63,883 bases of DNA from Candidatus Enterousia sp. (GCA_045586565.1 JAZNAO010000023.1:1-63883); one strand, 5' to 3'; positions 12,952-26,750 are shown, numbered from the stretch's first letter. The notes: a model not told the origin generated them from the letters alone. Numbers and translations: made by a program.

Positions 12952-14181
12952 TTATTCCCCCAGGGCTGTTTCAATTGCAGACATTTGGGCAATCGGTGCA
13001 ATATATTTTAATTCTGCATCGCCGTTTAATGTAATCGGTTCAATTACCCCGCGACGTGACAATATTTGCAGGCCCCTGTCGCACAGTGGTCGAATAAATT
13101 CATGCAACAGACGACCATATGTCGCCCCCAATATCCGCATCATGTCTGCATTGCGTGCCATAATTTCTGTGGCGGTCATTTCTTTTTCAGACAGCAACCC
13201 CAATCTGTCCGCCAGTAATGCATGGCGTATACGTTCGCGCAGGTCTTTCAGCACCAACTGCGACACGTCAAAGTCCGCGCCACTGGCCAACGGTGTCAGC
13301 CCAGACGACCCAACCGCCTTTGGTATAATCGCCCCCGGTGTCAGGTTGATATTATTCAAGTTTATAACACCATCATCGTCGGCCTGCCAGATGCCAGATA
13401 CGGCAATCGTTGCGTTCTTTAGAACCAATTCAACAACCTTGTTCGCAGTTTTTATATCTGGCAGTGCACGCAAGACAGGTCCACGGCCATACAATTCGCC
13501 CGATGATACAGACCAACGAAATATAATATATGGATTTGTTTCAAATGTACCGTGCGACACAATGTTATTTTCAATATCACCACCGACATCCAACCATGCG
13601 GTAAATTCTGTGCCAACCAGACTCTGCACCAGTTTTAGTGGGGTATCTGGGTCTTGTTTTATCGTATCGCGCAGATTGGCCGGCGGGGTCCATGTCGGAT
13701 ATTTATCCATGACTTCGCGTGCCGGCATTGATGTTGTATGAAATACTGCATTTGGTAAAATCGCAATATCAGACATTGGTATCGCCGTAAATGTAAATGC
13801 AGATGATGCACCAATTGGGGATTCTGCCATAAACAAACACGCCGTCCCCAATACGACCAAGTCCATATAACACTGATGAATAACCGTATAAAAATTAGAA
13901 TCGTTCAAATTTGCACGTAATTTGGATGTGGCAAATTCTGCATCAGGCGACAAAATACTTTCTGGCACCAGTGTCAGCCACATTGATTCTGGTGGGGTCA
14001 ACAGTGTGTATATCGATGCCGCCAGATTATCTGCCGCGTCCATCGCCGTTGCATCAAATAATGTTGCCGCATCATCATCAGCAGTTGGCATGGTATATTT
14101 GCGGGCATTATCCCAACGGTTTAACCATGGTGCGCGCATATCCAGTGCGCGTTTATACAAACTTTGCAGGTTTTGTTGCAT
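12952..14181 (-). CDS. podovirus head-to-tail connector (portal), T7 gp8-like
   Basis: Aligns by eye to T7 gp8. LYKRALDMRAPW..KYTMP matches VYERLKNDRAPY..QYTIP, NLAASIYTLLTPPESMW matches NLASKLMLALFPMQTW, the YGRGP block is shared, and TATEIMARNADMMRILGATYGRLLHEF matches TAEEIRYVASELEDTLGGVYSILSQEL. At 409 aa it is shorter than T7 gp8. Confidence 0.82.
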   Translation of the reverse strand: MQQNLQSLYKRALDMRAPWLNRWDNARKYTMPTADDDAATLFDATAMDAADNLAASIYTLLTPPESMWLTLVPESILSPDAEFATSKLRANLNDSNFYTVIHQCYMDLVVLGTACLFMAESPIGASSAFTFTAIPMSDIAILPNAVFHTTSMPAREVMDKYPTWTPPANLRDTIKQDPDTPLKLVQSLVGTEFTAWLDVGGDIENNIVSHGTFETNPYIIFRWSVSSGELYGRGPVLRALPDIKTANKVVELVLKNATIAVSGIWQADDDGVINLNNINLTPGAIIPKAVGSSGLTPLASGADFDVSQLVLKDLRERIRHALLADRLGLLSEKEMTATEIMARNADMMRILGATYGRLLHEFIRPLCDRGLQILSRRGVIEPITLNGDAELKYIAPIAQMSAIETALGE

Positions 14182-14210
14182 AAGGTTTCTCCTTTTGTTG
14201 TGTGTTATCT

Positions 14211-15074
14211 TTAAAGTTTGAAATTTGTGTTTGCAGTAAAAGTCTTTATCGTGCCACCAATTGGACGGGTTGGGGTTGGAACCTGGGCAATCGCGCCGGC
14301 AACTGCGTCCAGGCCGTCATCATGCATTCCACGCGCCAATGGCGACCATCCCAACATTTCAGATAATAGTGGTGTATTTTGAACACGTGTATGTGCATGC
14401 AGGCGTCCCGTGCTTAGCACTGGTTCAATCGCGTCCAGGATTCTGTCGGCCTTGGCACGTGTGTTCGATATGCGATTGACATAAATGTTTATGCCACGTC
14501 GCGACGCGCAATCGCGCATAATTTCTGGCAGACCGCCACCAATGCCATTGGTTTCAATTGTAATTCTATGTAAATTTCGTGCATGCATAAAATCTAACAC
14601 CATATCACATTGGCGCGACAGTGGAAATTGTTCGTCGTCTGAAACCGTCAGATATAAAATATCGTGAATAAATATATGGCGCGATTTATCGTCACGATAT
14701 AATAGCACGCATGCACTGCCGTCACGATGTGCACGGCCACTGGACGGGTCCCAATATAAAACACTGCCCGTGATATGCGATGCGCCAATTGTCGCGTTAC
14801 GCGGTTCAAATTCATCGTCATAAAAATGCAGTGCACCAGGATCCAGCCGTGCGCGTTCAGGGGACACAAATTCCAGCATCATCTGGGCAGAAAAATGTCG
14901 ATGTCCCACTGTTTCGCGCATTTGTTCGATTTTTTCAATCGGGAAAAGTTCCGGCCACGCCGGATTTCCGCACGTGTCTATTATCGGAATCTTTAATAAT
15001 TTATATCCGCATAAAAAAGGCGTTGAAAAAGCAAAATTTTCATATACCATTGAACCAAAGAAGGAATTAGACAT
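14211..15074 (-). CDS. large terminase, C-terminal (nuclease) half of a split gene
   Basis: CGYKLLKIP matches T7 gp19 RGYTTIIWP. RNase-H-like nuclease motifs are present: VLYWDPSSG, ITIETNGIGGG, HDDGLDAVAGA. The ORF is open up to 15149, and an in-frame ATG at 15074 is preceded by GGGGG. Confidence 0.8.
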   Translation of the reverse strand: MSNSFFGSMVYENFAFSTPFLCGYKLLKIPIIDTCGNPAWPELFPIEKIEQMRETVGHRHFSAQMMLEFVSPERARLDPGALHFYDDEFEPRNATIGASHITGSVLYWDPSSGRAHRDGSACVLLYRDDKSRHIFIHDILYLTVSDDEQFPLSRQCDMVLDFMHARNLHRITIETNGIGGGLPEIMRDCASRRGINIYVNRISNTRAKADRILDAIEPVLSTGRLHAHTRVQNTPLLSEMLGWSPLARGMHDDGLDAVAGAIAQVPTPTRPIGGTIKTFTANTNFKL

Positions 15075-16638
15075 GGATTTTACCCCCAAAACATTACCAA
15101 CAAATCTGGAAGCCGAACAGGCCGTATTGGCCGCAGTATTGATGAACAATCGCGCATTGGAACGCGTGTCTGAATTCCTGCGGGCGGAACACTTTTCGCA
15201 TCCCGCACACCAAGAAATATTTAAACTGGCCGAACGTCAATTCGCGGCTGGAATACCGTTTGATATTATTACTGCCAAGAACTATCTGGACCAACAAGGC
15301 GTTCTGGAATCTGTCGGTGGTGTAGATTATCTGACGCAATTGTCTGGCGCAGGCGCAACTGTTGTTAACGTTGAACAATACGGTCGCATCGTTTATGAAC
15401 ATGCAATGCGTCGCGATTTAATTGTACTGGGCCAAGATATTACAGACAAAGCATTTATCGAAGACTTGGATAATCCTGTGGCACGCCAGATTGAATTGGC
15501 GGAACAGAAACTGTTCGACATGGCAACCGCAGGGTCCGCAGAACGTGAAGTGACATCCATTTCAACAGCGTTACAGGCGGCACTGGCCGAAGCAGAAATC
15601 GCATACAAGGCCGATGGACAATTGTCGGGCCTTACCACTGGGTTAAGCGCACTGGACAAGTCAATCAGTGGTCTGCATCATTCTGACCTGATTATTATCG
15701 CAGGACGTCCCGCAATGGGAAAGACTACGTTGGCCATGAACATCGCGTTTAATGCCGCAAACGCAATCGCATACAATCGCGCAAACAAAAATTATAAGGG
15801 CGCCGTTGTTTTCTTTAGTTTGGAAATGTCTGCATCACAGTTGGCAGCACGTGTATTATCGTCACAATCAAAAATTCCGGCATCTGCAATGCGCGAAGGA
15901 ACGCTGACGGACGAAGACTTCTTGAAAATGTCACAATATTCTGCCGCAATCAGCAAGGTGCCACTGTTTATTGATGATACACCGGGTATGTCTGTGCCAA
16001 TGATGCGCACGCGCGCGCGTCGTTTGGCGCGTAAACACGGTGGAATTGCATTGATTGTGATTGACTATCTGCAATTGATGACCGCCCCAGGTGGAAAACG
16101 CAGTGATAATCGTGTTCAAGAAATTTCTGAAATCACACGTGGTCTGAAAATGTTGGCCAAGGAACTGGATGTACCGGTTATCGCCCTGTCCCAGTTATCA
16201 CGCAGTGTCGAAGCACGCGATGATAAACGTCCACAGTTGGCAGATTTACGTGAATCGGGTTCTATTGAACAAGACGCCGACATTGTTATGTTTACGTATC
16301 GTGAAGAATACTATCTGCAAAATCGCGACCCGTCCGAAAGATTGTCCAATACAACCAACAGTGCAATGGTGGAAAGTTGGCAAAAACGATTGGAACGCGC
16401 ACGTGGCAAGGCAGATATCATCATAGGAAAAAACCGTCACGGACGCCCAGAAACAGTGCGTACGGCATTCTTTGGCGATTACAGTTTGTTTGATAACCTG
16501 GACGAATTCCAGGCACGCGGCGAAAATGAATTTGCGTCCCCTGCACCAACGATTTCTGCATCTGCGTTGGAACCAGACCCAAATTTTGAACCGACTGCAA
16601 TTGATGCCGATGCAATCCCAGATGATATGCCATTGTAA
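15073..16638 (+). CDS. dnaB: replicative DNA helicase DnaB with acidic C-terminal extension
   Basis: N-terminal domain LEAEQAVLAAVLMNN, Walker A GRPAMGKTT, IVIDYLQLM, SQLSR and QDADIV motifs. AAGGAA RBS precedes the ATG at 15073. About 45 extra acidic/Pro-rich residues follow the conserved FDN end. Confidence 0.9.
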   Translation: MDFTPKTLPTNLEAEQAVLAAVLMNNRALERVSEFLRAEHFSHPAHQEIFKLAERQFAAGIPFDIITAKNYLDQQGVLESVGGVDYLTQLSGAGATVVNVEQYGRIVYEHAMRRDLIVLGQDITDKAFIEDLDNPVARQIELAEQKLFDMATAGSAEREVTSISTALQAALAEAEIAYKADGQLSGLTTGLSALDKSISGLHHSDLIIIAGRPAMGKTTLAMNIAFNAANAIAYNRANKNYKGAVVFFSLEMSASQLAARVLSSQSKIPASAMREGTLTDEDFLKMSQYSAAISKVPLFIDDTPGMSVPMMRTRARRLARKHGGIALIVIDYLQLMTAPGGKRSDNRVQEISEITRGLKMLAKELDVPVIALSQLSRSVEARDDKRPQLADLRESGSIEQDADIVMFTYREEYYLQNRDPSERLSNTTNSAMVESWQKRLERARGKADIIIGKNRHGRPETVRTAFFGDYSLFDNLDEFQARGENEFASPAPTISASALEPDPNFEPTAIDADAIPDDMPL

Positions 16639-16707
16639 TTATTTGCTTGCGCGGGAATCAAAATTTGACTATTATTTTGTCAAGAATTAGTCATTAGGAG
16701 TTTTGCC

Positions 16708-17715
16708 ATGGCACAAGAAGAAATTATATTTCCAAATAACATTCGCAACATCCGCTTGGCTGCGGGAATGAAAATGACCGAATTGGCGCGTCGCACAGGG
16801 TTGTCTTTATCTGCAGTATCAAAGATTGAAAAGGGCGTTCGTCGTTTAAACCAGAAACAATTGCTGAATGTGTGCAATATCTTAGGGTGCAAATTATCAG
16901 ACATCTTTATCAAAGAATCTGATGATGTCGCCGACCAATGGCAAAACGAAATTAAACGCCGTATGACAGACAACGAAAACAACGGTCTGAAAATATTCGG
17001 CAGTGGTCTGCGCAAAATCCGCCAACAGGCCGGCAAAACAATCGCACGCGCCGCCAAAGAAGCCGGAATGACATTATCTGTATATCACAAGATAGAGGTT
17101 GGTCAACGCGAAATATATACCGATGAAATTGAACCCTTGGCAAAATCTTTCGCATTGAATGCAGAACAAATGTTCGAAAAAATCGCAAACTTATACAAAT
17201 CAGGCGAATTGACCAAACAAATGAACAAGGTCAAAGAACGTGTGCAATCTGTGTTGGAACCGGGCAACCCACTGTCGGGAATGAATATCGGCGGCGGATT
17301 GTTTGGTGCGAAATTATATGACAGTGCACGTAAAAAATTGGTGCCTGTATTTGGAACACCGTCAGGCAAAGCCATCGCATTCAAAAAATCTGACAAAACA
17401 ATGATTGTGGCACCAATGTCATTGGAAGGACGTCGTGATATTTACGCCGTCATGCCTAATTCAAAGCGTCTGGGCGGTGTTATACCTGAAAAATCTTATG
17501 TTTTGGCAGACGCATCTGTCCCCGCACAGGTTGGTGATATGGCCATATGTATTGATGCGCAATTTGAATCATTAGATACAGATACAAATGTTACCGCACA
17601 TGTCGCGATGGTCAAGCAAGATGCCAAAGGTAAATTATACGGTCAACTGGTTGGACCAGATGAAAAAATAACATATCAAACAATGCACAAAGTTATTATG
17701 ATTGTGATGGAATAA
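16708..17715 (+). CDS. tandem XRE-HTH regulator with S24/CI-like C-terminal domain
   Basis: Two HTH_XRE-like units (IRNIRLAAGMKMTELARRTGLSLSAVSKIEKG and LRKIRQQAGKTIARAAKEAGMTLSVYHKIEVG). The C-terminal beta-rich region resembles the LexA/CI S24 fold (VPVFG..., GDMAI). Confidence 0.65.
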   Translation: MAQEEIIFPNNIRNIRLAAGMKMTELARRTGLSLSAVSKIEKGVRRLNQKQLLNVCNILGCKLSDIFIKESDDVADQWQNEIKRRMTDNENNGLKIFGSGLRKIRQQAGKTIARAAKEAGMTLSVYHKIEVGQREIYTDEIEPLAKSFALNAEQMFEKIANLYKSGELTKQMNKVKERVQSVLEPGNPLSGMNIGGGLFGAKLYDSARKKLVPVFGTPSGKAIAFKKSDKTMIVAPMSLEGRRDIYAVMPNSKRLGGVIPEKSYVLADASVPAQVGDMAICIDAQFESLDTDTNVTAHVAMVKQDAKGKLYGQLVGPDEKITYQTMHKVIMIVME

Positions 17716-17737
17716 CAACCATATACGGAGAGAGATA

Positions 17738-18376
17738 ATGAAAGCCAAAGCCAGCGCAACCGCACAAAGACTGTTAAATCTGTACCGCCAAGAACATGTG
17801 ATTGTCGGCGGGTGGGCAGTAATCAATCCGATATTTGTTGCAGATGCGTCTGATGATGTTATCGCAGAATTGCGCGACAAACCGAACGGTAACACGTTGA
17901 TAAAACATATCGAGAATCTGCGCAGTGGTAAAACACCAATGGATTCAATTGAACGTGAGCTGTTACCATATGGTGGTATGATGACAGAAGAAATTGCATC
18001 TATTACGTTGACACCGGCACAATGGCAAGAATTGACACAGGGAATTGAAAACTTTACCCCAGATCAAGCAGGATTGGATGTATTTCAGGCTTTAAACGTT
18101 GTTCGCACATTTGGTGCGGAATGGCCCGTAGCAATTCGTGCTGCATTATCAGCGCGTCCACAATTACTGGACAAATGGAATGTTATAAACCAAACGTATA
18201 ATGCATATAGACTGTGGAATACAGCACACGAAGTTATCGCAAACCCATTGTCGGAACGTGTCCGCGCCCAGGTCCAAGCAGATATGCCAGAATATGAAAC
18301 ATACCTGCCGATGTTTGGAAACGCGGGGGCGGAACTGTTGACCAAATTACGAACATTTGTCAGCAGTTTAAACTAA
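17738..18376 (+). CDS. hypothetical protein (212 aa)
   Basis: Clean ORF with GGAGAGAG RBS. I recognise no family. Its stop codon overlaps the stop of the convergent terminase N-half. Confidence 0.55.
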   Translation: MKAKASATAQRLLNLYRQEHVIVGGWAVINPIFVADASDDVIAELRDKPNGNTLIKHIENLRSGKTPMDSIERELLPYGGMMTEEIASITLTPAQWQELTQGIENFTPDQAGLDVFQALNVVRTFGAEWPVAIRAALSARPQLLDKWNVINQTYNAYRLWNTAHEVIANPLSERVRAQVQADMPEYETYLPMFGNAGAELLTKLRTFVSSLN

Positions 18377-18990
18377 TCTAATTTGTTTGTGCGATATATC
18401 GTATCGTGCGTGTGTGGCGTTCCAATGTATATCATTGCACCAGATGGCGATAGTATAAAATCCAATTCACGCAACCTTTCCCGTAATGCCGCGCGTTTTT
18501 GTGCTGTGTTTGATGTATTTGGCACTTCGACATCATCGCATAATATTAAATCTGCGCGCATGCCTGTGATATTGCCATGAATCCCCTGACAAATAACAGA
18601 CGGTTCACGTATACCGATGGGGCGATTGATTGTAATACGCCCAGACGCCCATTCTTTTTTATTCTTTGGAATCATATCTGTGCACCATGGATGATTTTCC
18701 AAAATATGCCGAATATGCCCAACCATACGGGTGGCCAAACCGTTTTCAGCTGATAAAATCAATATCCGTGTTTGGGGACGCAGGTATAACACACATGCGG
18801 CAAAAATCCCAACCACTGTGGATTTCCCAGAATGACGAAATGCCATCAACAAACCACGCCCCGGTGCATCAGAAAATATTTCAACCAGAAATTTCATTAT
18901 TTGGTAATGATGTGTGGGCGTTTTAAATCCTAAGACACGATTCCATTGATCTAAAAAAGTATTAAATTGTGTAATCATATTATTCCACAA
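18373..18990 (-). CDS. large terminase, N-terminal (ATPase) half of a split gene
   Basis: Aligns to T7 gp19. LLMAFRHSGKST matches ILQAFRGIGKSF (Walker A), ILILSAE matches ILIVSAS, RADLILCDDVEVPNTSNT matches RADIIIADDVEIPSNSAT (Walker B), and IYIGTPHTHDTIY matches [13 protein letters not shown]. It stops 6 codons later. Confidence 0.85.
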   Translation of the reverse strand: MWNNMITQFNTFLDQWNRVLGFKTPTHHYQIMKFLVEIFSDAPGRGLLMAFRHSGKSTVVGIFAACVLYLRPQTRILILSAENGLATRMVGHIRHILENHPWCTDMIPKNKKEWASGRITINRPIGIREPSVICQGIHGNITGMRADLILCDDVEVPNTSNTAQKRAALRERLRELDFILSPSGAMIYIGTPHTHDTIYRTNKLD

Positions 18991-19327
18991 TATTATCTAA
19001 TCTGGACAGCAAAGATTTTAATAAATTAGGCTTTTTGACGCGTGTTCCTTTTAACTTTTTCAGATTTTCGGCACTCTTTTTCTGATAAGGCATTGCAGTT
19101 TCTGATTGCAAGCGTTTTAATACCGCACCTTCGGTAATACCATTGCCAGACATCCCAAAAGCACCATATTTTGCACGCTGGGTTGCCAAAACTTTTTTAA
19201 TCAGATTTGTTTTTTCGGCATTATCTGCGGCCATTTGTGCCAAGATTTCTTTGCGTTCTGATTTTGCCGCTTTTTTACTGTCTTTGTAATCCAATATTTC
19301 TGTTACATCTGATACTAATTGTCCCAT
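18980..19327 (-). CDS. hypothetical phage protein (116 aa), possible small terminase by position only
   Basis: AAGGAAA RBS. Lys-rich and helical. Its 3' end overlaps the terL-N start by 11 nt. No family recognised. Confidence 0.45.
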   Translation of the reverse strand: MGQLVSDVTEILDYKDSKKAAKSERKEILAQMAADNAEKTNLIKKVLATQRAKYGAFGMSGNGITEGAVLKRLQSETAMPYQKKSAENLKKLKGTRVKKPNLLKSLLSRLDNIVE

Positions 19328-19355
19328 TTGTTTTCCTTTTTTTTGATTAAAAATG

Positions 19356-21071
19356 CTATACAGAATACCAACCATGCACACCAACAGATAAAACAGTCAA
19401 AGGATATGGTTCGTTGCTGTCAATTGTCCAGGTTGGCATAGAACAGTTTGATTGCGTCCCCAAAATATTTATTGATACATCGCCAGAAAAACCTGGGGAC
19501 GATATATCGTAAACATCATTGGGCAACGTAACACGTTTCCCATTTATATTTATAAACTTTGTGTTCATAATACGGGCAACAATACGATGTAATTTGATGT
19601 ATCGTGGAATATGACCTGACGCAATCATTGGAATGCCTGATGCGACACATGTGAAATCATATTTATCTGCATCACGCATTGTATCTGAATCAAAGTATTC
19701 CAAGAATATACCATCTGACCGATGGACAACAACATACGTCTGGTCATTGGATATACCAACTGAAATAAACTGACCATTGGTAGAATATCTTGCCCACGCA
19801 GAAATCCCCAGCGGAGAATTCTGATTCAGAACTGCCATATTGCCATCCATACCCACAACGTATAAACGACATAATGTATCATTATATGCAATATCCATCG
19901 GTGTATTCAGTATATGTTTCGCAAATGCGCACAAATCATTGGCATTATATTTTTCACCCAAATCATCTAAACCCAGTTCACGAATATCACGACCGTTTGA
20001 CGACACAAATATTGTTGCGCCTTTGATAGTCTGGGGTGGCAGATATCGTGACGAATACGATCCAACAGATGTATGTTGCCGTATATCAACATTCGATGGG
20101 GTTAAAGGCTTGCTGGATATTGCCCATTCACCGACATTTGTTAGTATTTGCAGATTATCACTGCTGACCACGGTACAGATTTGTTGACGATGTTGCGATA
20201 ATAATGAAACAAAAATCGCTTCGTCGTCCAAACCTGTCCCTGGGGCAAATGTAGTATGTTTCCCAACCTGGGATATCCATATACCAGACGGGTAATCACG
20301 TGACCCACCAAATATCAGTCGGTTTTGATGAAACGTTATACTGCGTGGCCAACCACGACGTGCGCTGAACGCTGCTTCTTGCCAATCGCTTATGGGTTCT
20401 GACGGTGTTTTATATGAACTATTTGTATGTGCAACAACCTGGGTCGGATTGATGTATTCTGTAATAACCCACTGTTGTTCCAATAAATACAATCGTGTGT
20501 TTACATTTTCTGGGGTCCAAAAATTCTGGTTGGTTGTTAGTGTGGCAAAATTATTGCCTTTGTCATTTATTGTAACTGTAATAGTTATTCCATCAGTATC
20601 TTCAAATTTCACAAATGGTATATTTGATGTCATATCATTGTCATTACGCGAAAAGTCAAAATCTGACATGCAGAACCCCTGTGACGTCTTGGACAAACAG
20701 ACAGGTCTGTAATCAGGGTGAACAAATATCATTGTTCCAAAACGTTGTGCGTATTGCAGATTCGACAAATCATCATATGACCATGGTGTGATTAAATCCT
20801 GGTATTTTTCATTGTCGTAATATATATACATATGATAATTAGTTAGGGCAATTAAATATTCTGTGCCATCAGATACAGACATAGAAATCAAGCGGGCATT
20901 ACCAGGTAATCGCGCCACTGATTTTAGGCCGCAACGCCGTGTTATACCCCCACCTGCTAAAACATCCATATTTTCTAGTTTTGACAAACCGTGTATATTA
21001 TCGTTTGTATAAAATTCTGGCGCAATTTCACCAGATGCAAATGTATTTTGCGTTTTAATAAAGTTAGACAT
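19356..21071 (-). CDS. tail tubular protein B (T7 gp12-like nozzle)
   Basis: The N-terminal SGEIAPEF...LENMDVLAGGGITRRCG resembles gp12 GGISQQPD...vNGwss..eGLQKRPP. ITFHQNRLIFGGS..GIWISQ matches gp12 VFFFRNRLGFLSGENIILSR. At 572 aa it is shorter than T7 gp12. Confidence 0.68.
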   Translation of the reverse strand: MSNFIKTQNTFASGEIAPEFYTNDNIHGLSKLENMDVLAGGGITRRCGLKSVARLPGNARLISMSVSDGTEYLIALTNYHMYIYYDNEKYQDLITPWSYDDLSNLQYAQRFGTMIFVHPDYRPVCLSKTSQGFCMSDFDFSRNDNDMTSNIPFVKFEDTDGITITVTINDKGNNFATLTTNQNFWTPENVNTRLYLLEQQWVITEYINPTQVVAHTNSSYKTPSEPISDWQEAAFSARRGWPRSITFHQNRLIFGGSRDYPSGIWISQVGKHTTFAPGTGLDDEAIFVSLLSQHRQQICTVVSSDNLQILTNVGEWAISSKPLTPSNVDIRQHTSVGSYSSRYLPPQTIKGATIFVSSNGRDIRELGLDDLGEKYNANDLCAFAKHILNTPMDIAYNDTLCRLYVVGMDGNMAVLNQNSPLGISAWARYSTNGQFISVGISNDQTYVVVHRSDGIFLEYFDSDTMRDADKYDFTCVASGIPMIASGHIPRYIKLHRIVARIMNTKFININGKRVTLPNDVYDISSPGFSGDVSINILGTQSNCSMPTWTIDSNEPYPLTVLSVGVHGWYSV

Positions 21072-21088
21072 TGCAAATCCCCCAGAAA

Positions 21089-21607
21089 TTAAAATCGATT
21101 GGTAATCAATGAAAAATCTTGCAATGCATCTGATGCAGATGTTGTACTGTCTATGAATTTGGCCGTTTGCAGTTCTGATTCGAACAGGGCCGCCAACATA
21201 CGAAACACCGATTGATTCCCGGTTAGAGGGATACAAAATTCCATTGCCAAACGTGTGGCAACCAACGATACAAAATATCCAGGGAACGCATCTGGCGATG
21301 TTCGAACTAATGCAGTAATTGTTATATCTGATGCATCTGAAATAATACGATTACCAATAATGCGACCATGTGTTTTTAATACACGTAAAACATTTGATGG
21401 AATCAGAAAATCACCATCAGCATTGCGCATCAGCGAAATTTCTTGGGTCGCAAAACGCCATGGATGTAGTGATAACAATGTATCTGTTACAGAATCATAC
21501 AATGTTCGTGCCAATTGTGACGTGGCAGAATCATCCGTAAAAGACTGAATTGGTGATTCCCCCAATTTTAACAATGCCATTGAACATAAATCTATCTTGG
21601 AAAGCAT
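21089..21607 (-). CDS. tail tubular protein A / adaptor (T7 gp11-like)
   Basis: CSMALLKLGESPIQSFTDDSATSQLARTLYDSVTDTLLSLHPWRFA parallels T7 gp11 [46 protein letters not shown]. Size is similar at 172 aa. Confidence 0.68.
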   Translation of the reverse strand: MLSKIDLCSMALLKLGESPIQSFTDDSATSQLARTLYDSVTDTLLSLHPWRFATQEISLMRNADGDFLIPSNVLRVLKTHGRIIGNRIISDASDITITALVRTSPDAFPGYFVSLVATRLAMEFCIPLTGNQSVFRMLAALFESELQTAKFIDSTTSASDALQDFSLITNRF

Positions 21608-21628
21608 TTTTGCACCTTTTGGTTATAT

Positions 21629-21661
21629 AAAAAAATTTGGGCGACAAAACATATCGCCCAA
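21629..21661 (-). terminator. rho-independent terminator after the capsid/76-aa unit
   Basis: On the minus strand: ttgggcga-tatgttttg-tcgcccaa followed by a T7 run. This is analogous to the T7 T-phi position downstream of the capsid gene. Confidence 0.7.
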
Positions 21662-21678
21662 TTATGAATTCGAATAAT

Positions 21679-21909
21679 TTATGCCAACGCAACGGTTGTA
21701 ACATTTAATTCTGTGATATTGATTTTTTTTATCGCAGTATTATCAGATGCATTCATTATAATAATATCGCCAATATTCATCAATGTTTTAACGTCATTAA
21801 AATATCCATTGGATGTAATTGTTGACAATGTTTCATTTGCACTGTAATGCCACAATGTAAATCCATTCGCATATGCGATAACAGACAAATTTTTATTCTG
21901 GAATGCCAT
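21679..21909 (-). CDS. small phage protein (76 aa) downstream of capsid
   Basis: Intact ORF with an AAGGAAAAA-type RBS, 40 nt after the capsid stop. No family recognised. Confidence 0.5.
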   Translation of the reverse strand: MAFQNKNLSVIAYANGFTLWHYSANETLSTITSNGYFNDVKTLMNIGDIIIMNASDNTAIKKINITELNVTTVALA

Positions 21910-21949
21910 GTGTTTTTCCTTTTGGTTTATGGGTTATTTAAATTGTGAT

Positions 21950-22771
21950 TTATTGTGCATCAGAACATTTGACACGAACAATACCATCACCATCAATCAA
22001 AACAGCGCCTTGGGACATACTGTTGCTGATAAAGTGTGCAGCACGTTCACCATGCCATGAAATATCTGTTTTGACTTCTTGGCCACATGCGTGACCAATA
22101 CTGGACGCGTGATAAATAAAGCAATCGCGTTTGTCGCCATCTGATGGCAAACCGTTGTACAGAACCCATGTGATACCCAACCATTTGCGGGCTTCGGCAC
22201 CGTTTAACAAAGGCAACGAATCACCAACATAATCAGCAGATACAAATTCGTCCATTGATAACAATTCATTCCATTGACGCACACCAACAACCGCAAAACG
22301 TCGACCGTCGTCCGGAACATCGTTTGTGTTTAAAACTTCTAATGCAGACAGAACCAAATCTTTGGTCATACCTGTGCTGTAATCACCAACTGTGGCAGTC
22401 GCAGCATTCATTGCAGACACAATCAATTCATCTGTTTTGCGTCCCAACGCATATGCGCCGGCAGATGCAACAACGCGACGTTCATCAACGTTTGTTTTTA
22501 ATTCGTCCAACGCATCAACCCAATCGCCCGCATAGTAATCCTGTAACAGGCATTCTACGGGTTCGTGATTTAGATTCATCACCGGAACAATACCGTGACG
22601 TGATTTTGTGCTGGCCATGCCACGACCAACCTTTTGGAAAGTGGTCGACGCACCAACAACACCAGATTTACTGCGAATTGTCGAACGCAGTTTTGTGCCC
22701 ATTTGCTGATATGCCAAATGAACATCGGCTTCGAATTGTTTCACAAATACATTATCTATGGAAACAGACAT
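21950..22771 (-). CDS. major capsid protein (T7 gp10-like)
   Basis: VFVKQFEADVHLAYQQ...TFQKVGRG parallels gp10 LFLKVFGGEVLTAFAR...QFPVLGRT. It follows the scaffold gene. AAAGGA RBS precedes the Met at 22771, so the ORF-track start at 22846 is probably too long. Confidence 0.72.
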   Translation of the reverse strand: MSVSIDNVFVKQFEADVHLAYQQMGTKLRSTIRSKSGVVGASTTFQKVGRGMASTKSRHGIVPVMNLNHEPVECLLQDYYAGDWVDALDELKTNVDERRVVASAGAYALGRKTDELIVSAMNAATATVGDYSTGMTKDLVLSALEVLNTNDVPDDGRRFAVVGVRQWNELLSMDEFVSADYVGDSLPLLNGAEARKWLGITWVLYNGLPSDGDKRDCFIYHASSIGHACGQEVKTDISWHGERAAHFISNSMSQGAVLIDGDGIVRVKCSDAQ

Positions 22772-22902
22772 ATAAAAATCCTTTGGTTTACAAATTGATA
22801 TTGATGTGAAAAACACATCACCAAATTTTGTGTTTTGGTTATGCATATAAAATGCGCCATAAATACAAAAAAAAATTTAGGGTCCGAATAATTCGGATTA
22901 TC

Positions 22903-22974
22903 CAAAAAAAATATCAGTCAGACTGTATATATCATCTGACTGATACTTTTAAAAATCCCCGCGAATGCGGGGAT
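22903..22974 (-). terminator. tandem rho-independent terminators after the Lys-rich gene
   Basis: On the minus strand: atccccgc-attc-gcggggat + tttt (22974..22947). Then an 11-bp-arm hairpin tatcagtcaga-N12-tctgactgata followed by T8 (22945..22903). Confidence 0.65.
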
Positions 22975-22978
22975 TATA

Positions 22979-23425
22979 TTATTTTTTCTTTACTGCTTTT
23001 TTTGCCGGTGCTTTTTTTGCAACTGGTTTTTTAACCGCTGCTTTTTTTGCCGGTGCTTTTTTTGCAACTGGTTTTTTAACCGCTACTTTCTTTGCAGGTG
23101 CTTTTTTTGCAACTGGTTTTTTAACAGCTACTTTCTTTGCAGGTGCTTTTTTTGCAACTGGTTTTTTTACCGCTACTTTTTTTGCAGGGGCTTTTTTTGC
23201 AACCGGTTTTTTTACCGCTACTTTTTTTGCAGGTGCTTTTTTTGCAACCGGTTTTTTAACCGCTACTTTTTTCGCTGCAGGTTTTGCAACAGGTTTCGCA
23301 GCCGCTTTCTTGGCAGGGGCTTTTTTTGCAACCGGTTTTTTAACCGCTACTTTTTTCGCTGCAGGTTTTGCAACAGGTTTCGCAGCCGCTTTCTTGGCAG
23401 CAGATTTTTTAAACAAGAATGCCAT
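22979..23425 (-). CDS. histone H1-like Lys/Ala/Pro-repeat basic protein (148 aa)
   Basis: Sequence [12 protein letters not shown]([28 protein letters not shown])n. AAGGAGAG RBS, with its own promoter and terminators. The + strand ORF 22965..23444 is its mirror artefact. Confidence 0.8.
22990..23400. repeat. in-frame tandem repeats (45-bp unit x ~5, 84-bp unit x 2)
   Basis: ctttctttgcaggtgctttttttgcaactggttttttaacagcta-type 45-bp unit (= [15 protein letters not shown]). An 84-bp unit is repeated at 23261 and 23345. Confidence 0.85.
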
Positions 23426-23482
23426 TCTTTCTCTCCTTACTTAAGTTTTGGATAGAACAAATCCGTTTTGTTCTTGATATGT

Positions 23483-23511
23483 ATTTTATCGTAAATACAA
23501 AACTTAGTAAA
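23483..23511 (-). promoter_or_regulatory. candidate promoter of the Lys-rich gene
   Basis: On the minus strand: TTTACT, 17 nt spacer, TAAAAT. Lies in the gap between the scaffold stop and the Lys-rich gene. Confidence 0.45.
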
Positions 23512-23531
23512 GTAGAAAGTGTATTTTTTTA

Positions 23532-24188
23532 TTACGAATATAATTTTTTAAAACCATTTTCTATTTTTCGAATGTATTCTGTATCTTTGTCACGCCAATA
23601 TTTTGGGTCACGCATCATACGACGCAAATCTGCATCTGTTAAATTTTTTATGTCAACAGAATTTATTTCAACACTGGGTTCCATTGACTGCATCATCTTA
23701 TACACACTTTGAATTCCCTGGGGTGTAGCGCACAAAGCATCAAATGCATCTTGTGGTAAAAATTTTTCACCGAATGTATTTATTGCATTTAATGCATCTG
23801 TCATTTTTTCATTACCACCAAAAAAATTTTTTAATTCATTTATTGCATTTGTTTCATTTTGTACGGAATATAATTCAGATATCACAGGAGATAAAAATTC
23901 ATTTGCAATATCATAAATTTTTTCAACCTGGGATACAGTTAATCCAATTTCTAAAAATTTATCACGCAACTTTTCATCATTATATAATTCGTGTGTTGGA
24001 TATTCCGATGCATTTTCTGGAACACCAATTGCACGATTAAATTTTCGACGCGTATCTGCATCAGAATCAGCACCTGGAACAGATATCATTGTGCCAATCT
24101 TTTTTTCTAGTTCTGTATACGATTTTACTAATGCATCTGCATTTAACGTGCCATCACTGTTTTGAAATTTTTCTGGTATATTATCCAT
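23532..24188 (-). CDS. capsid scaffolding protein (T7 gp9-like)
   Basis: The C-terminal LRRMMRDPKYWRDKDTEYIRKIENGF matches T7 gp9 MIKAMSDPRYRTDANYRRQVEQKV. Acidic, helical protein sitting just upstream of the capsid gene. Confidence 0.78.
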   Translation of the reverse strand: MDNIPEKFQNSDGTLNADALVKSYTELEKKIGTMISVPGADSDADTRRKFNRAIGVPENASEYPTHELYNDEKLRDKFLEIGLTVSQVEKIYDIANEFLSPVISELYSVQNETNAINELKNFFGGNEKMTDALNAINTFGEKFLPQDAFDALCATPQGIQSVYKMMQSMEPSVEINSVDIKNLTDADLRRMMRDPKYWRDKDTEYIRKIENGFKKLYS

Positions 24189-24379
24189 TATTGTTTTCCT
24201 TTGGTTTCATTAGATTTGCGTAAAAAATAAATTCCAGCCAACGTAAATATTGTTTGCAACATAGTGAATATATCTGTATCACCCACCAGGTATGCCGCCA
24301 CTGCAGATAATATCCCTGTCGCAGAAATTATATATGTTCTGTATCCGGTCAGATATCCACCCTTGATTATTCTTTTCAT
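24188..24379 (-). CDS. holin-like two-TM small protein (63 aa)
   Basis: Two hydrophobic helices and a charged C-terminus (RKSNETKGKQ). Lies between the lysin and scaffold genes, with ATG overlapping the scaffold start region. Confidence 0.5.
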   Translation of the reverse strand: MKRIIKGGYLTGYRTYIISATGILSAVAAYLVGDTDIFTMLQTIFTLAGIYFLRKSNETKGKQ

Positions 24380-24388
24380 GTTGATTAC

Positions 24389-24799
24389 CTATCTGTAAAA
24401 CAATACGCCATCAATATCTGCAATATAACCACGTGCAGTTGCCCAATCTGGTATAACATCATCATTATGAAAACGCGTTGCGCCGAAACATACATCTGGC
24501 AAATTTCCTGTCAACATACGTTGGGCGGTACGTACACACATTTGAAAACCACGATCATTTGCAGGAACATTTAATTTGATGTGGTTTGTAGCGTTATCAG
24601 ATAATACATCAAAAATTTTAATATCTTGTATAATATCTTTATAGGCGACATTATATGTTTTGGATATATTATCAATCATTGATGTCATTGCTTCGACCAG
24701 ATGCAGTGATGCACCACCTGTCTGTGCATATACAACACGTGCAATTTTATATGCCAACGATGCGGATGTATCCGAATTTTTGATAAGTGTCATTTGCAT
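24389..24799 (-). CDS. SleB/CwlJ-family cell wall hydrolase (lysin)
   Basis: ARVVYAQTGGASL...AMTSMIDN...GATRFHNDDVIPDWA resembles the Hydrolase_2 (SleB) pattern. GGGAGAG RBS precedes the Met at 24799. Confidence 0.6.
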   Translation of the reverse strand: MQMTLIKNSDTSASLAYKIARVVYAQTGGASLHLVEAMTSMIDNISKTYNVAYKDIIQDIKIFDVLSDNATNHIKLNVPANDRGFQMCVRTAQRMLTGNLPDVCFGATRFHNDDVIPDWATARGYIADIDGVLFYR

Positions 24800-24816
24800 G
24801 ATTATCTCTCCCAAAC

Positions 24817-24867
24817 AAAAAACCACGCAAATGCGTGGCAATAAAAAAACCACAACCAATGTTGTGG
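24817..24867 (-). terminator. two tandem rho-independent terminators
   Basis: On the minus strand: ccacaacattggttgtgg + T7 (24867..24843), and ccacgcatttgcgtgg + T6 (24838..24817). Both lie downstream of birA and immediately upstream of the lysin RBS. Confidence 0.75.
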
Positions 24868-24894
24868 ACAGTATTTGTGCTGTTGATGCATTAT

Positions 24895-24923
24895 ATATTA
24901 GCACATTTGTATACAAAAGTCAA
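24895..24923 (-). promoter_or_regulatory. sigma70-like promoter upstream of the tandem terminators
   Basis: On the minus strand: TTGACT (24923..24918), 17 nt spacer, TAATAT (24900..24895). Confidence 0.5.
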
Positions 24924-26128: not shown

Positions 26129-26374
26129 TCAATTGCGTCCGTGGTCAGAGGGCTCTATGAACTTAGTGAAATCCTGAATTTTAGCTCCTGTGGATGATAA
26201 AATCTTAGAAATACTGTTCGTAGACGGCCATCGCGGCTGTCCTTCTTTGGACCAACGTTTACTTTTGTTAAAGGTTGTTGGGTCCAGCCCGCTGCACTTT
26301 GCCAGTCCAGAACAAGACATTCCATGTTCCGTGGCAAAGCGTTCTATGGCACGCCAAACATCGTCATGTGTCAT
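26129..26374 (-). CDS. HTH protein resembling the N-terminal domain of alphaproteobacterial S24/CI-like repressors (81 aa)
   Basis: GLAKCSGLDPTTFNKSKRWSKEGQPRWPSTNSISKIL matches the conserved N-terminus of HTH-S24 repressors as I remember them. No S24 domain follows. Confidence 0.6.
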   Translation of the reverse strand: MTHDDVWRAIERFATEHGMSCSGLAKCSGLDPTTFNKSKRWSKEGQPRWPSTNSISKILSSTGAKIQDFTKFIEPSDHGRN

Positions 26375-26523
26375 TTTTTTCTCTCCCTATTGTTAGCACA
26401 CATCAATACATCTTTGCATTGATGTACATTGATTTTATTCCAGAAATCCGGGCAAAACAACAAGTACCATTTCCTAGGAACCAATGCAAAAATACCACAC
26501 AAAAAAATTTTTTGACAAAACAC

Positions 26524-26552
26524 TTGACGAATCGATTTTTGTATACTATATT
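26524..26552 (+). promoter_or_regulatory. sigma70-like promoter of the candidate sRNA
   Basis: TTGACG, 17 nt spacer, TATATT. Confidence 0.55.
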
Positions 26553-26558
26553 TATTTT

Positions 26559-26750
26559 CGTCAAAGGAACAAAACCGATGACCAGTATGCGCAAGCAACT
26601 GTGGGGACCAGAGGTTCAGACTCCCTCCTACATTCTCTCTCCTCTGGACTCTGGGCCCCAGCATAAAGTTTAGAGTGTCCAATTTCTTTTTCTCCTTTCC
26701 TTCCTTTCGGGACACTCGGAAATACCGCCGGAAACGGCGGTGTTTTTTTT
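26559..26750 (+). ncRNA. candidate trans-acting sRNA with two CU-rich (anti-SD-like) loops
   Basis: Promoter-to-terminator unit of about 190 nt. Hairpin 1 is ccagagg/cctctgg, with a loop containing cuccCUCCu. Hairpin 2 is gagtgtcc/ggacactc, with a 29-nt loop uuucuuuuucuccuuuccuuccuuuc. Terminator is accgccg-gaaa-cggcggt + T8. Ends are approximate. Confidence 0.55.

Follow-up and report, generated by a model that had tools for sequence, protein, structure and literature searches.

Free-standing histone H1-like polycations are known from few bacteria, in which they remodel the nucleoid. One such group is of the Burkholderia/Bordetella type and includes BpH1/BpH2 and the AlgP-type KPAA repeat proteins. 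Virion-internal basic proteins (T4 IPI-III, adenovirus VII/mu, protamines) form a second set of possible comparators, and promoter-gene-terminator cassettes located between phage genes are familiar as morons, which were defined for lambdoid phages. HctB (Hc2) of Chlamydia trachomatis is 165-237 aa long and varies in length between strains by repeat gain and loss (PMC2848022). Here we describe a gene of this general kind at 22979..23425 (minus strand) of a 63,883-nt stretch of Candidatus Enterousia sp. (GCA_045586565.1 JAZNAO010000023.1:1-63883; 'the window' in the following, with positions counted from its first nucleotide). It encodes a 148-aa protein built almost entirely of lysine, alanine, valine and proline, termed the K/A/P protein here, and lies between the scaffold and capsid genes of a podovirus-derived cluster. 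An earlier reading of the sequence alone, the original prediction, had described it as a histone H1-like repeat gene inserted as a moron.

We report on the gene and its repeats, the conservation of its regulatory elements, its phyletic pattern and its length variation, and we weigh what the protein may do; the reading we lean towards is that of a DNA-condensing protein of the cell. The K/A/P proteins constitute a lineage-wide family in the very small genomes of uncultured gut bacteria, marked by terminal motifs of its own, by repeats that turn over fast and by a regulatory cassette that is tightly conserved. More surprising than the protein itself is the cluster around it, a domesticated, podovirus-like set of genes with a terminase split by dnaB, which is kept in all Enterousia-group genomes retrieved.

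The K/A/P repeat gene and its expression cassette

The protein encoded in the window is extreme in composition: 143 of its 148 residues (97%) are K (57), A (45), V (23) or P (18), D and E are absent, the pI is 11.7 and the net charge +57. It is laid out as an MAFLFKK N-terminus, a repeat body and a KKK C-terminus. In the sequence as assembled, Tandem Repeats Finder (TRF) reported an in-frame array of 8.2 copies of a 45-bp unit (22996..23356, minus strand; 86% matches), within which an 84-bp unit is nested twice (23210..23377; copies at 23210..23293 and 23294..23377, 90% identical to each other). In the protein an exact 15-aa unit occurs six times, plus one AAV variant. Both units given in the original prediction, 15 aa/45 bp and twice 28 aa/84 bp, were recovered, the TRF unit translating to the former in another phase; the repeats are in frame, and only their description as near-perfect is slightly generous, the DNA identity between units being 86-93%. 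The G/C content of the gene (40.0%, compared to 38% in the surrounding 2-kb bins) is not the distinctive base composition of a moron and is dictated by the K/A/P/V codons.

Profile searches agreed with the predicted histone H1/Hc2-like character. Pfam HC2 (PF07382) matched residues 1-146 with 78.3 bits (cut-off 40) and NCBIfam NF038053, histone H1-like DNA-binding protein, scored 88.2 against an equivalog cut-off of 80; the NCBIfam Hc2 model NF038052 was not passed (60.1 vs 135). Three composition-preserving shuffles of the sequence matched neither HC2 nor NF038053. The Pfam scan gave HC2 and, below threshold, extensin as its only matches, and no linker-histone globular (winged-helix) domain. 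When the K/A/P protein was searched for homologues, all that came up were unrelated proteins with K/A/P tails (HU, SWIB, DksA, CarD, BlaI-type and others), and by analogy such fusions support the idea of a generic nucleic-acid-affinity module. Exact-sequence look-ups of the protein and five of its orthologues gave no match in the protein collection, which seems to be without such low-complexity products.

In total, 83 orthologues were recovered from loci with flanking sequence, and all of them are intact in one frame. They are 72-164 aa long, consist of K, A, V and P to 92%, and have a median net charge of +45. The N-terminus follows M-[AGV]-F-x-F-[LKR] and the ending K-[KR]-K; one to four cysteines lie within the last 20 residues (e.g. 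PCAKKACAKKK) in 70 of the 83, and C-terminal cysteines are absent from the remaining 13, i.e. the window copy and 12 others. Every orthologue contains an in-frame tandem array with a best-scoring period of 15-174 nt that is always a multiple of 3. The units differ by lineage, which implies that the arrays were re-made repeatedly with charge and spacing kept. As 83 orthologues are intact, repeat periods are multiples of 3, and termini, ribosome-binding site (RBS) and start are conserved, the sequence comparison marks the open reading frame (ORF) as a genuine gene. Length also differs at close range: three contigs with an identical capsid protein and flanks 98.4-99.7% identical carry 138-, 92- and 68-aa versions with the same termini (all from short-read assemblies), and a contig of a near-identical strain lacks 15 nt at 22994. 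The length polymorphism that had been anticipated is hence real between species and apparently exists within one as well. Since length differs between contigs of the same species, the gene is a candidate strain-typing marker, as is hctB in Chlamydia.

Upstream of the gene we find a sigma-70-type promoter, CACTTTCTnCTTTACTA (23483..23521, minus strand), with a -35 hexamer TTTACT (23511..23506), a 17-nt spacer and a -10 hexamer TAAAAT (23488..23483), matching the consensus in 9 of 12 positions. Promoter-like sites are no more frequent in the window than expected by chance (35 observed; 33 expected from shuffles), so that support from outside is needed. In 77 of 82 orthologous upstream regions both hexamers are invariant and 17-18 nt apart, and the sequence of the spacer is variable; a conserved CACTTTCT box is located 5' of the hexamers. 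This phylogenetic footprint, invariant hexamers around a variable spacer, argues that the promoter is real. A perfect palindrome, AGAACAAA-N5-TTTGTTCT (23454..23474, minus strand), starts 8-9 nt past the -10 hexamer; it occurs once in the 64-kb window, with 0 expected by chance, and orthologues have it as AGAACAAA-N4-6-TTTGTTCT with nearly invariant arms and a variable loop. It would form the very 5' end of the transcript and could be either a stabilising mRNA hairpin or an operator. The evidence leans toward sequence-specific recognition, as the arms show no covariation. Co-regulation with the cluster genes was tested, and neither the palindrome nor the extended -35 box has a second copy elsewhere in the window. 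The Shine-Dalgarno sequence AAGGAGAG (23438..23431, minus strand) is a strong one, located 5 nt 5' of the ATG at 23425, and is kept as AAGGAGAGA in those orthologues whose upstream sequences were displayed.

Beyond the stop codon, two terminators follow each other on the minus strand: T1 (22951..22975), a GC-rich hairpin AAUCCCCGC-AUUC-GCGGGGAUU with a U-run behind it, and T2 (22904..22950), a long hairpin with the arms UAUCAGUCAGA..UCUGACUGAUA, an A-run before and U8 after. Together (22975..22904) they fold with -36.7 kcal/mol (z = -7.7 compared to shuffles). The T1 stem changes in sequence between species with the hairpin preserved, i.e. it covaries; the T2 arms UCAGUCAGA/UCUGACUGA are conserved in sequence among the species displayed. 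A loose custom scan found tandem terminator-like hairpins 3' of the stop codon in 82 of the 83 orthologues. Rfam searches gave no match to the 5' palindrome, to the terminators or to the leader of the capsid gene described below. Promoter (23483..23511), RBS and double intrinsic terminator had all been noted before and stand up to the comparison: the arrangement of own promoter and own terminator that characterizes morons is present in 77/82 and 82/83 loci, respectively, with a transcription start predicted from sequence.

The scaffold-capsid junction and the cluster around it

Relatives of the capsid protein number in the thousands; the best 120 of them are 79-93% identical and stem from gut metagenomes and metagenome-assembled genomes (MAGs). 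Among one-genome-per-species contigs 323 stretches encode a capsid relative; counts of species genomes refer to the best 80 of these 323, which belong to MAGs labelled 'Candidatus Enterousia', Alphaproteobacteria or, more loosely, (proteo)bacterium, and come from ruminants, horses, birds and humans. All 80 loci share a common order: p81-p139-birA, hydrolase to terL-N (the ATPase half of the large terminase), p212-HTH-dnaB on the other strand (HTH, helix-turn-helix), terL-C (the nuclease half) and portal. The cluster is flanked by birA, miaA and gap and is AT-richer (38% G/C) than its surroundings (42-45%). We did not find an integrase, a replication module, an RNA polymerase, T7-type core proteins or a prohead protease gene in the cluster, and no spanin-like gene was recognised in it. 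Median identities to the window are highest for capsid (90%; 87-93%), followed by DnaB (87%) and BirA (73%), and capsid identity tracks that of BirA (Spearman rho 0.85) and DnaB (rho 0.70). Given the synteny in 80/80 loci, the conservation of the capsid and its covariation with host genes, the sequences indicate a vertically inherited, strongly constrained and reduced podovirus-like cluster, similar to a gene transfer agent (GTA) in its genetics and no ordinary prophage. The carrier assumed originally, a T7-like prophage, therefore has to be replaced by a chromosomal cluster beside birA, syntenic in 80/80 retrieved species genomes and with essential host genes inside. We found no account of it in the papers mentioning Enterousia or in the GTA literature searched.

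Directly 5' of the capsid gene, the K/A/P ORF is present in every genome locus with enough upstream sequence. In the 13 genome loci without it, the contig breaks off 300-600 bp 5' of capsid, from which we conclude that assemblies break in the repeat. Contigs often stop at or near the capsid start (L003, L007, L011, L018, L020, L022, L023, L038, L040, L041, L069, L070 and L077), and many IMG/VR contigs (L083-L133) likewise stop there or a few hundred bases before. The repeat is a frequent, systematic breakpoint in short-read MAGs, which it fragments, and repeat numbers in them are uncertain.

A scan of viral contigs yielded a graded series of 80 loci with capsid identities from 93% down to 46%. 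The K/A/P gene is found in all of these loci that have an upstream flank and a capsid identity of at least 81%. Locus L135 (75%), in which the birA-linked synteny is retained, has its slot occupied by an unrelated gene for a multi-pass membrane protein of 188 aa (L135:2121-2687); in L134 (77%), a rearranged version of the cluster, the K/A/P gene is not in the slot. The scaffold-capsid junction is empty in L136 (68%) and L137 (66%), and in phage-like contigs with capsids of 46-62% identity the capsid gene is not preceded by a K/A/P ORF. In Pelagibacter phage EXVC031P Hodr (capsid 43% identical) and in contig MT838907 (64%), too, the scaffold gene lies next to that of the capsid. A tblastn search of phage genomes with the K/A/P protein gave no match, which is uninformative owing to the low-complexity filter. 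Because relatives have the junction uninterrupted and L135 holds a different gene, the junction can be regarded as an insertion or cargo slot. The distribution indicates that the cassette entered this slot once, in the ancestor of the lineage with at least 80% capsid identity, and is old, fixed and of moron type. The moron claim consequently stands as to its layout, the gene-free junction in phage relatives (Hodr, MT838907, L136) and the other cargo in L135, and falls as to a mobile prophage carrier; only the repeat arrays are young, and the insertion itself is ancient.

Possible roles of the K/A/P protein

The RNA evidence consists of contigs that an assembler had built from metatranscriptomes of related species. 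One bovine-gut metatranscriptome has 112 short contigs on the repeat body, whose depths add up to as much as ~390; the flanks have none in this run, and the values are ~4 for capsid and 37 for GAPDH. Loose ends of the repeat-body contigs encode PCAKKACAKK, which is an Enterousia-type end. Two other metatranscriptome runs have a smaller K/A/P excess or none, and a query with the yak MAG retrieved only one weak RNA run. These data are suggestive of strong K/A/P RNA, separate from that of the adjacent structural genes.

On balance, we consider it probable that the K/A/P protein is a self-expressed, DNA-condensing polycation similar to Hc2 or an H1 tail, and a cellular nucleoid protein rather than a particle component. 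The cassette would have entered the scaffold-capsid junction of the podovirus-derived cluster in an ancestor of the Enterousia lineage and would have been inherited vertically with the chromosome since. Selection would keep charge and composition, a pentamer-like KK spacing, the M-A-F-x-F N-terminus and, mostly, the C-terminal (C-A-K-K)n-K, and the repeat array would turn over fast through gain and loss of units. Composition and known analogues point to polyanion binding and DNA compaction: the protein may bind the phosphate backbone of DNA, and probably of RNA, independently of sequence and bridge or condense it, and the C-terminal cysteines, where present, could cross-link molecules. In this way it might serve the cell as a nucleoid-associated or compaction protein, expressed independently of the neighbouring phage-like genes. 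Enterousia genomes measure 0.75-1.0 Mb (PMC12306168), and retention of the gene in genomes of this size implies that it is in use. We prefer a role in the cell over one in a particle because the cassette is insulated on both sides and shares no motif with the cluster genes, and because of the two-fold length change within a species, the absence from the slot in L135 and the high RNA signal.

Several observations weigh against this assignment. In every species examined the gene has remained among the head genes of a particle cluster that is strongly conserved, as would also be expected if it encoded a particle protein, and its conserved N-terminal motif could be a targeting peptide. The search for K/A/P paralogues and other nucleoid proteins covered the 64-kb window, which has none. 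The differences between the 138-, 92- and 68-aa versions are possibly due to repeat collapse. One RNA contig runs from the 3' end of scaffold into the beginning of K/A/P, so that read-through or contaminating DNA is possible, and the RNA contigs come from other species and cover multi-mapping repeats, which match across species more easily. Lastly, the reversed K/A/P sequence passes Pfam HC2 as well (43.2 bits; NF038053 43.5, below cut-off), and the profile scores thus reflect the periodic KK pattern and not a demonstrable ancestry.

Among the alternatives, a condensing protein inside the particle, the idea favoured in the original prediction, survives best, though we regard it as rather unlikely. 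The polycation would be loaded into the podovirus-like head, or onto the DNA being packaged, and neutralise its charge, following the models of protamine, T4 internal proteins and adenovirus protein VII; the cysteines within the last 20 residues (70/83) would lock the condensate and M-A-F-x-F would act as a head-targeting peptide. The conservation of this N-terminal motif fits such a role, as do the position between scaffold and capsid in 83/83 loci and the presence of the cassette in every examined domesticated-cluster lineage with a capsid identity of at least 80%, and a head whose cluster lacks T7-type internal core genes might be filled otherwise. Against this, the slot is without the gene in L135, where synteny is the same, and in the rearranged L134; the protein differs two-fold in length within one species, and 13/83 orthologues including that of the window are missing the cysteines. 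Its promoter and palindrome are not shared with the cluster genes, and the double terminator isolates it from capsid; the cluster has no prohead protease that could process a targeting peptide, and the RNA contigs suggest expression far above that of scaffold and tail genes. Furthermore, packaging motors normally strip DNA-bound proteins. Still less probable in our view is a more specific version, in which the K/A/P protein is the protamine of an undescribed podovirus-derived GTA of gut Alphaproteobacteria: it would be recruited into the head through M-A-F-x-F, replace the T7-type core, neutralise packaged host DNA and be cross-linked itself by its C-terminal cysteines. If true, this would be the first bacterial virus-like particle with a dedicated histone-like condensing protein.

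The location in the cluster would also be explained if the polycation coated the AT-rich phage-like genes in the manner of a xenogeneic silencer and kept them off until a signal arrives, a proposal that we hold to be improbable. It draws on the higher A/T content of the cluster and on a gene that is embedded in it yet expressed separately; moreover, chlamydial Hc1 expressed in E. coli represses transcription and translation according to a statement, with citation, in PMC12619734. However, a preference for sequence or A/T is without support, K/A/P tails are regarded as non-specific binders, and the L135 lineage does without the gene in the slot. The silencer is in effect a special case of the cellular DNA-condensing polycation and adds no distinct mechanism to it.

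Very little speaks for a lysis accessory, a polycation freed at lysis that destabilises the outer membrane as a disruptin-like spanin substitute and complements the hydrolase and the 63-aa protein of the cluster. Polycations do permeabilise outer membranes, the K/A/P N-terminus is short and hydrophobic, and no spanin-like gene was recognised in the cluster, but the protein lacks both amphipathic character and a signal sequence, exceeds known disruptins in length by far and would be bound to nucleic acid in the cytoplasm; in addition, the scaffold gene separates it from the lysis genes, it has its own promoter, and its RNA signal is high without a lysis-gene signal. That the ORF is no gene at all and only the by-product of a non-coding tandem repeat open in several frames (22965..23444 on the plus strand, 159 aa, and another frame of the minus strand are open too) can practically be dismissed, as only the minus-strand frame has a conserved promoter, Shine-Dalgarno sequence, ATG, termini, stop and terminators in 83 lineages, the repeat periods are always multiples of 3 though units differ by lineage, and RNA contigs cover it.

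Neighbouring features and comparison with known systems

On the minus strand, the cluster genes follow each other in the order of cell-wall hydrolase (24389..24916, first in transcription order), 63-aa membrane protein (24188..24379), T7-type scaffolding (capsid assembly) protein (23532..24188; PF05396, E 7e-10), which is the upstream neighbour of the K/A/P gene, then K/A/P, major capsid protein (21950..22771; 273 aa; PF19821, E 3e-70), a 76-aa protein, tail tubular proteins A and B, a 134-aa protein and the 205-aa terminase part, terL-N (18373..18990). Both terL-C (14211..15149) and portal (12952..14181) are located further on, also on the minus strand. The whole cluster extends over 12952..15149 and 18373..24916 (minus strand) in the window and was seen in loci L001-L080 and L083-L133. 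The terminase halves are 3.2 kb apart and separately conserved, and the split falls at a domain boundary; the insertion between them (14974..18376) holds a 212-aa protein, a regulator with two HTH motifs and dnaB on the opposite strand. This DnaB passes the alphaproteobacterial replicative-helicase equivalog and fails the phage-DnaB model. The split is present in every long-enough locus with a capsid identity of at least 75%, and the halves are contiguous in relatives with 68% or less (L136, L137, L145, L147, L148). In many species an extra gene of ~183 aa or more, with a weak match to the T7 tail-fibre N-terminal family (PF03906), is located between the 134-aa gene and terL-N (e.g. L163:7320-7828); judged by the p134-to-terL-N spacing it is missing in the window species, where the slot is the 18990..19000 junction, and in ~15 others. 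At 26129..26705 the window encodes an 81-aa protein that has no family match and whose identity between species (84-99%) is one of the highest in the region; the bin 26175..26705, with an apparently non-coding stretch, has the top RNA contig depth in two metatranscriptomes and no Rfam family. One MAG, RGIG4147, contributes three capsid-region contigs (L009, L041, L071; 92%, 89% and 88% identical to the window), which are probably due to a mixed-strain bin and not to three copies.

The cassette terminators are followed by a structured capsid leader of ~130 nt (22772..22903, minus strand). It comprises the hairpins H3 (GGAUAAUCCG..CGGACCC; 22903..22880), H4 (GGCGC-stem-GCAUAACC with a covarying stem; 22858..22837) and H5 (variable; 22822..22803), all on the minus strand, and then the RBS AAAGGA. 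The general order is GGAUAAUCCG..CGGACCC, GGCGC-covarying stem-GCAUAACCAAAA and a variable hairpin. The longest capsid ORF extends into this conserved leader and begins at 22846; from the alignment to relatives and the conserved RBS, its true start is the ATG at 22771. An exact-sequence look-up of the long ORF found no match in the protein collection. H3/H4-like motifs are also found 5' of the capsid gene in L134, L135 and L138, which assigns the leader to capsid rather than to the cassette. Leader-related motifs precede the capsid gene even in relatives of 60-77% identity, high-GC ones included. A sigma-54 promoter was considered for the TGGCGC..TGCAT element 5' of capsid and rejected, as the GG-GC spacing varies from 11-14 nt between species.

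For comparison with known systems we return to the cellular DNA-condensing polycation as our preferred reading. Eukaryotic linker histone H1 is matched in its C-terminal tail only, the whole K/A/P protein being repeat. The K/A/P tails of DNA-binding proteins such as mycobacterial/actinobacterial HU are of the same repeat type, whereas the Enterousia protein stands alone, with no folded partner. Like virion-internal basic proteins, the K/A/P protein is highly basic and encoded among head genes, and its terminal cysteines recall the cross-linking of protamines. However, there is no sequence relationship, the protein is Lys-rich and not Arg-rich, and neither a protease gene in the cluster nor a cleavage motif accompanies it. 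Internal proteins of the T4 type have an N-terminal targeting peptide that a prohead protease removes; at the N-terminus of the K/A/P protein there is the conserved M-[AGV]-F-x-F motif. With phage morons the locus has in common an additional gene where relatives have an uninterrupted junction, a promoter and terminators belonging to that gene, and an alternative cargo in a sister lineage; it differs in that the carrier is chromosomally fixed, the cassette ancient and lineage-universal, and the base composition not distinctive. As in GTAs, the surrounding cluster consists only of genes for head, tail, packaging and lysis, has a fixed chromosomal position and diverges with its host under strong purifying selection, in genomes of <1 Mb. 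RcGTA is siphovirus-like, in contrast to the podovirus (T7/HTVC010P-like) ancestry of the Enterousia cluster, which has its terminase split by dnaB and lacks core/ejection proteins. RcGTA-type agents occur in reduced genomes elsewhere (PMC9254644), and GTAs are described from reduced genomes of endosymbionts (PMC9254644; PMC9662315).

Closer in kind are the free-standing bacterial proteins. The Burkholderia/Bordetella-type H1-like proteins (NF038053) have the same K/A/P repeat chemistry and are free-standing proteobacterial proteins as well, whereas the Enterousia protein is alphaproteobacterial, is encoded in a reduced genome and in another neighbourhood, and has lineage-specific terminal motifs; AlgP, moreover, has a structured N-terminal domain, which the Enterousia protein is without. 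Chlamydial Hc2 is likewise a stand-alone, Lys/Ala-rich protein with lysine-rich pentamers in longer repeats, and its strain-to-strain variation in copy number has a counterpart in the arrays of all 83 orthologues and in the 138/92/68-aa versions. The expected activity, non-specific binding and compaction of DNA and RNA, would be shared and is predicted for the K/A/P protein. Hc2 belongs to another phylum and to the context of a developmental cycle, a context that the K/A/P protein is without, and common descent is unproven. Compared to Hc2, the Enterousia proteins have in addition the M-A-F-x-F N-terminus, the C-terminal cysteine motif and a location within a phage-derived cluster.

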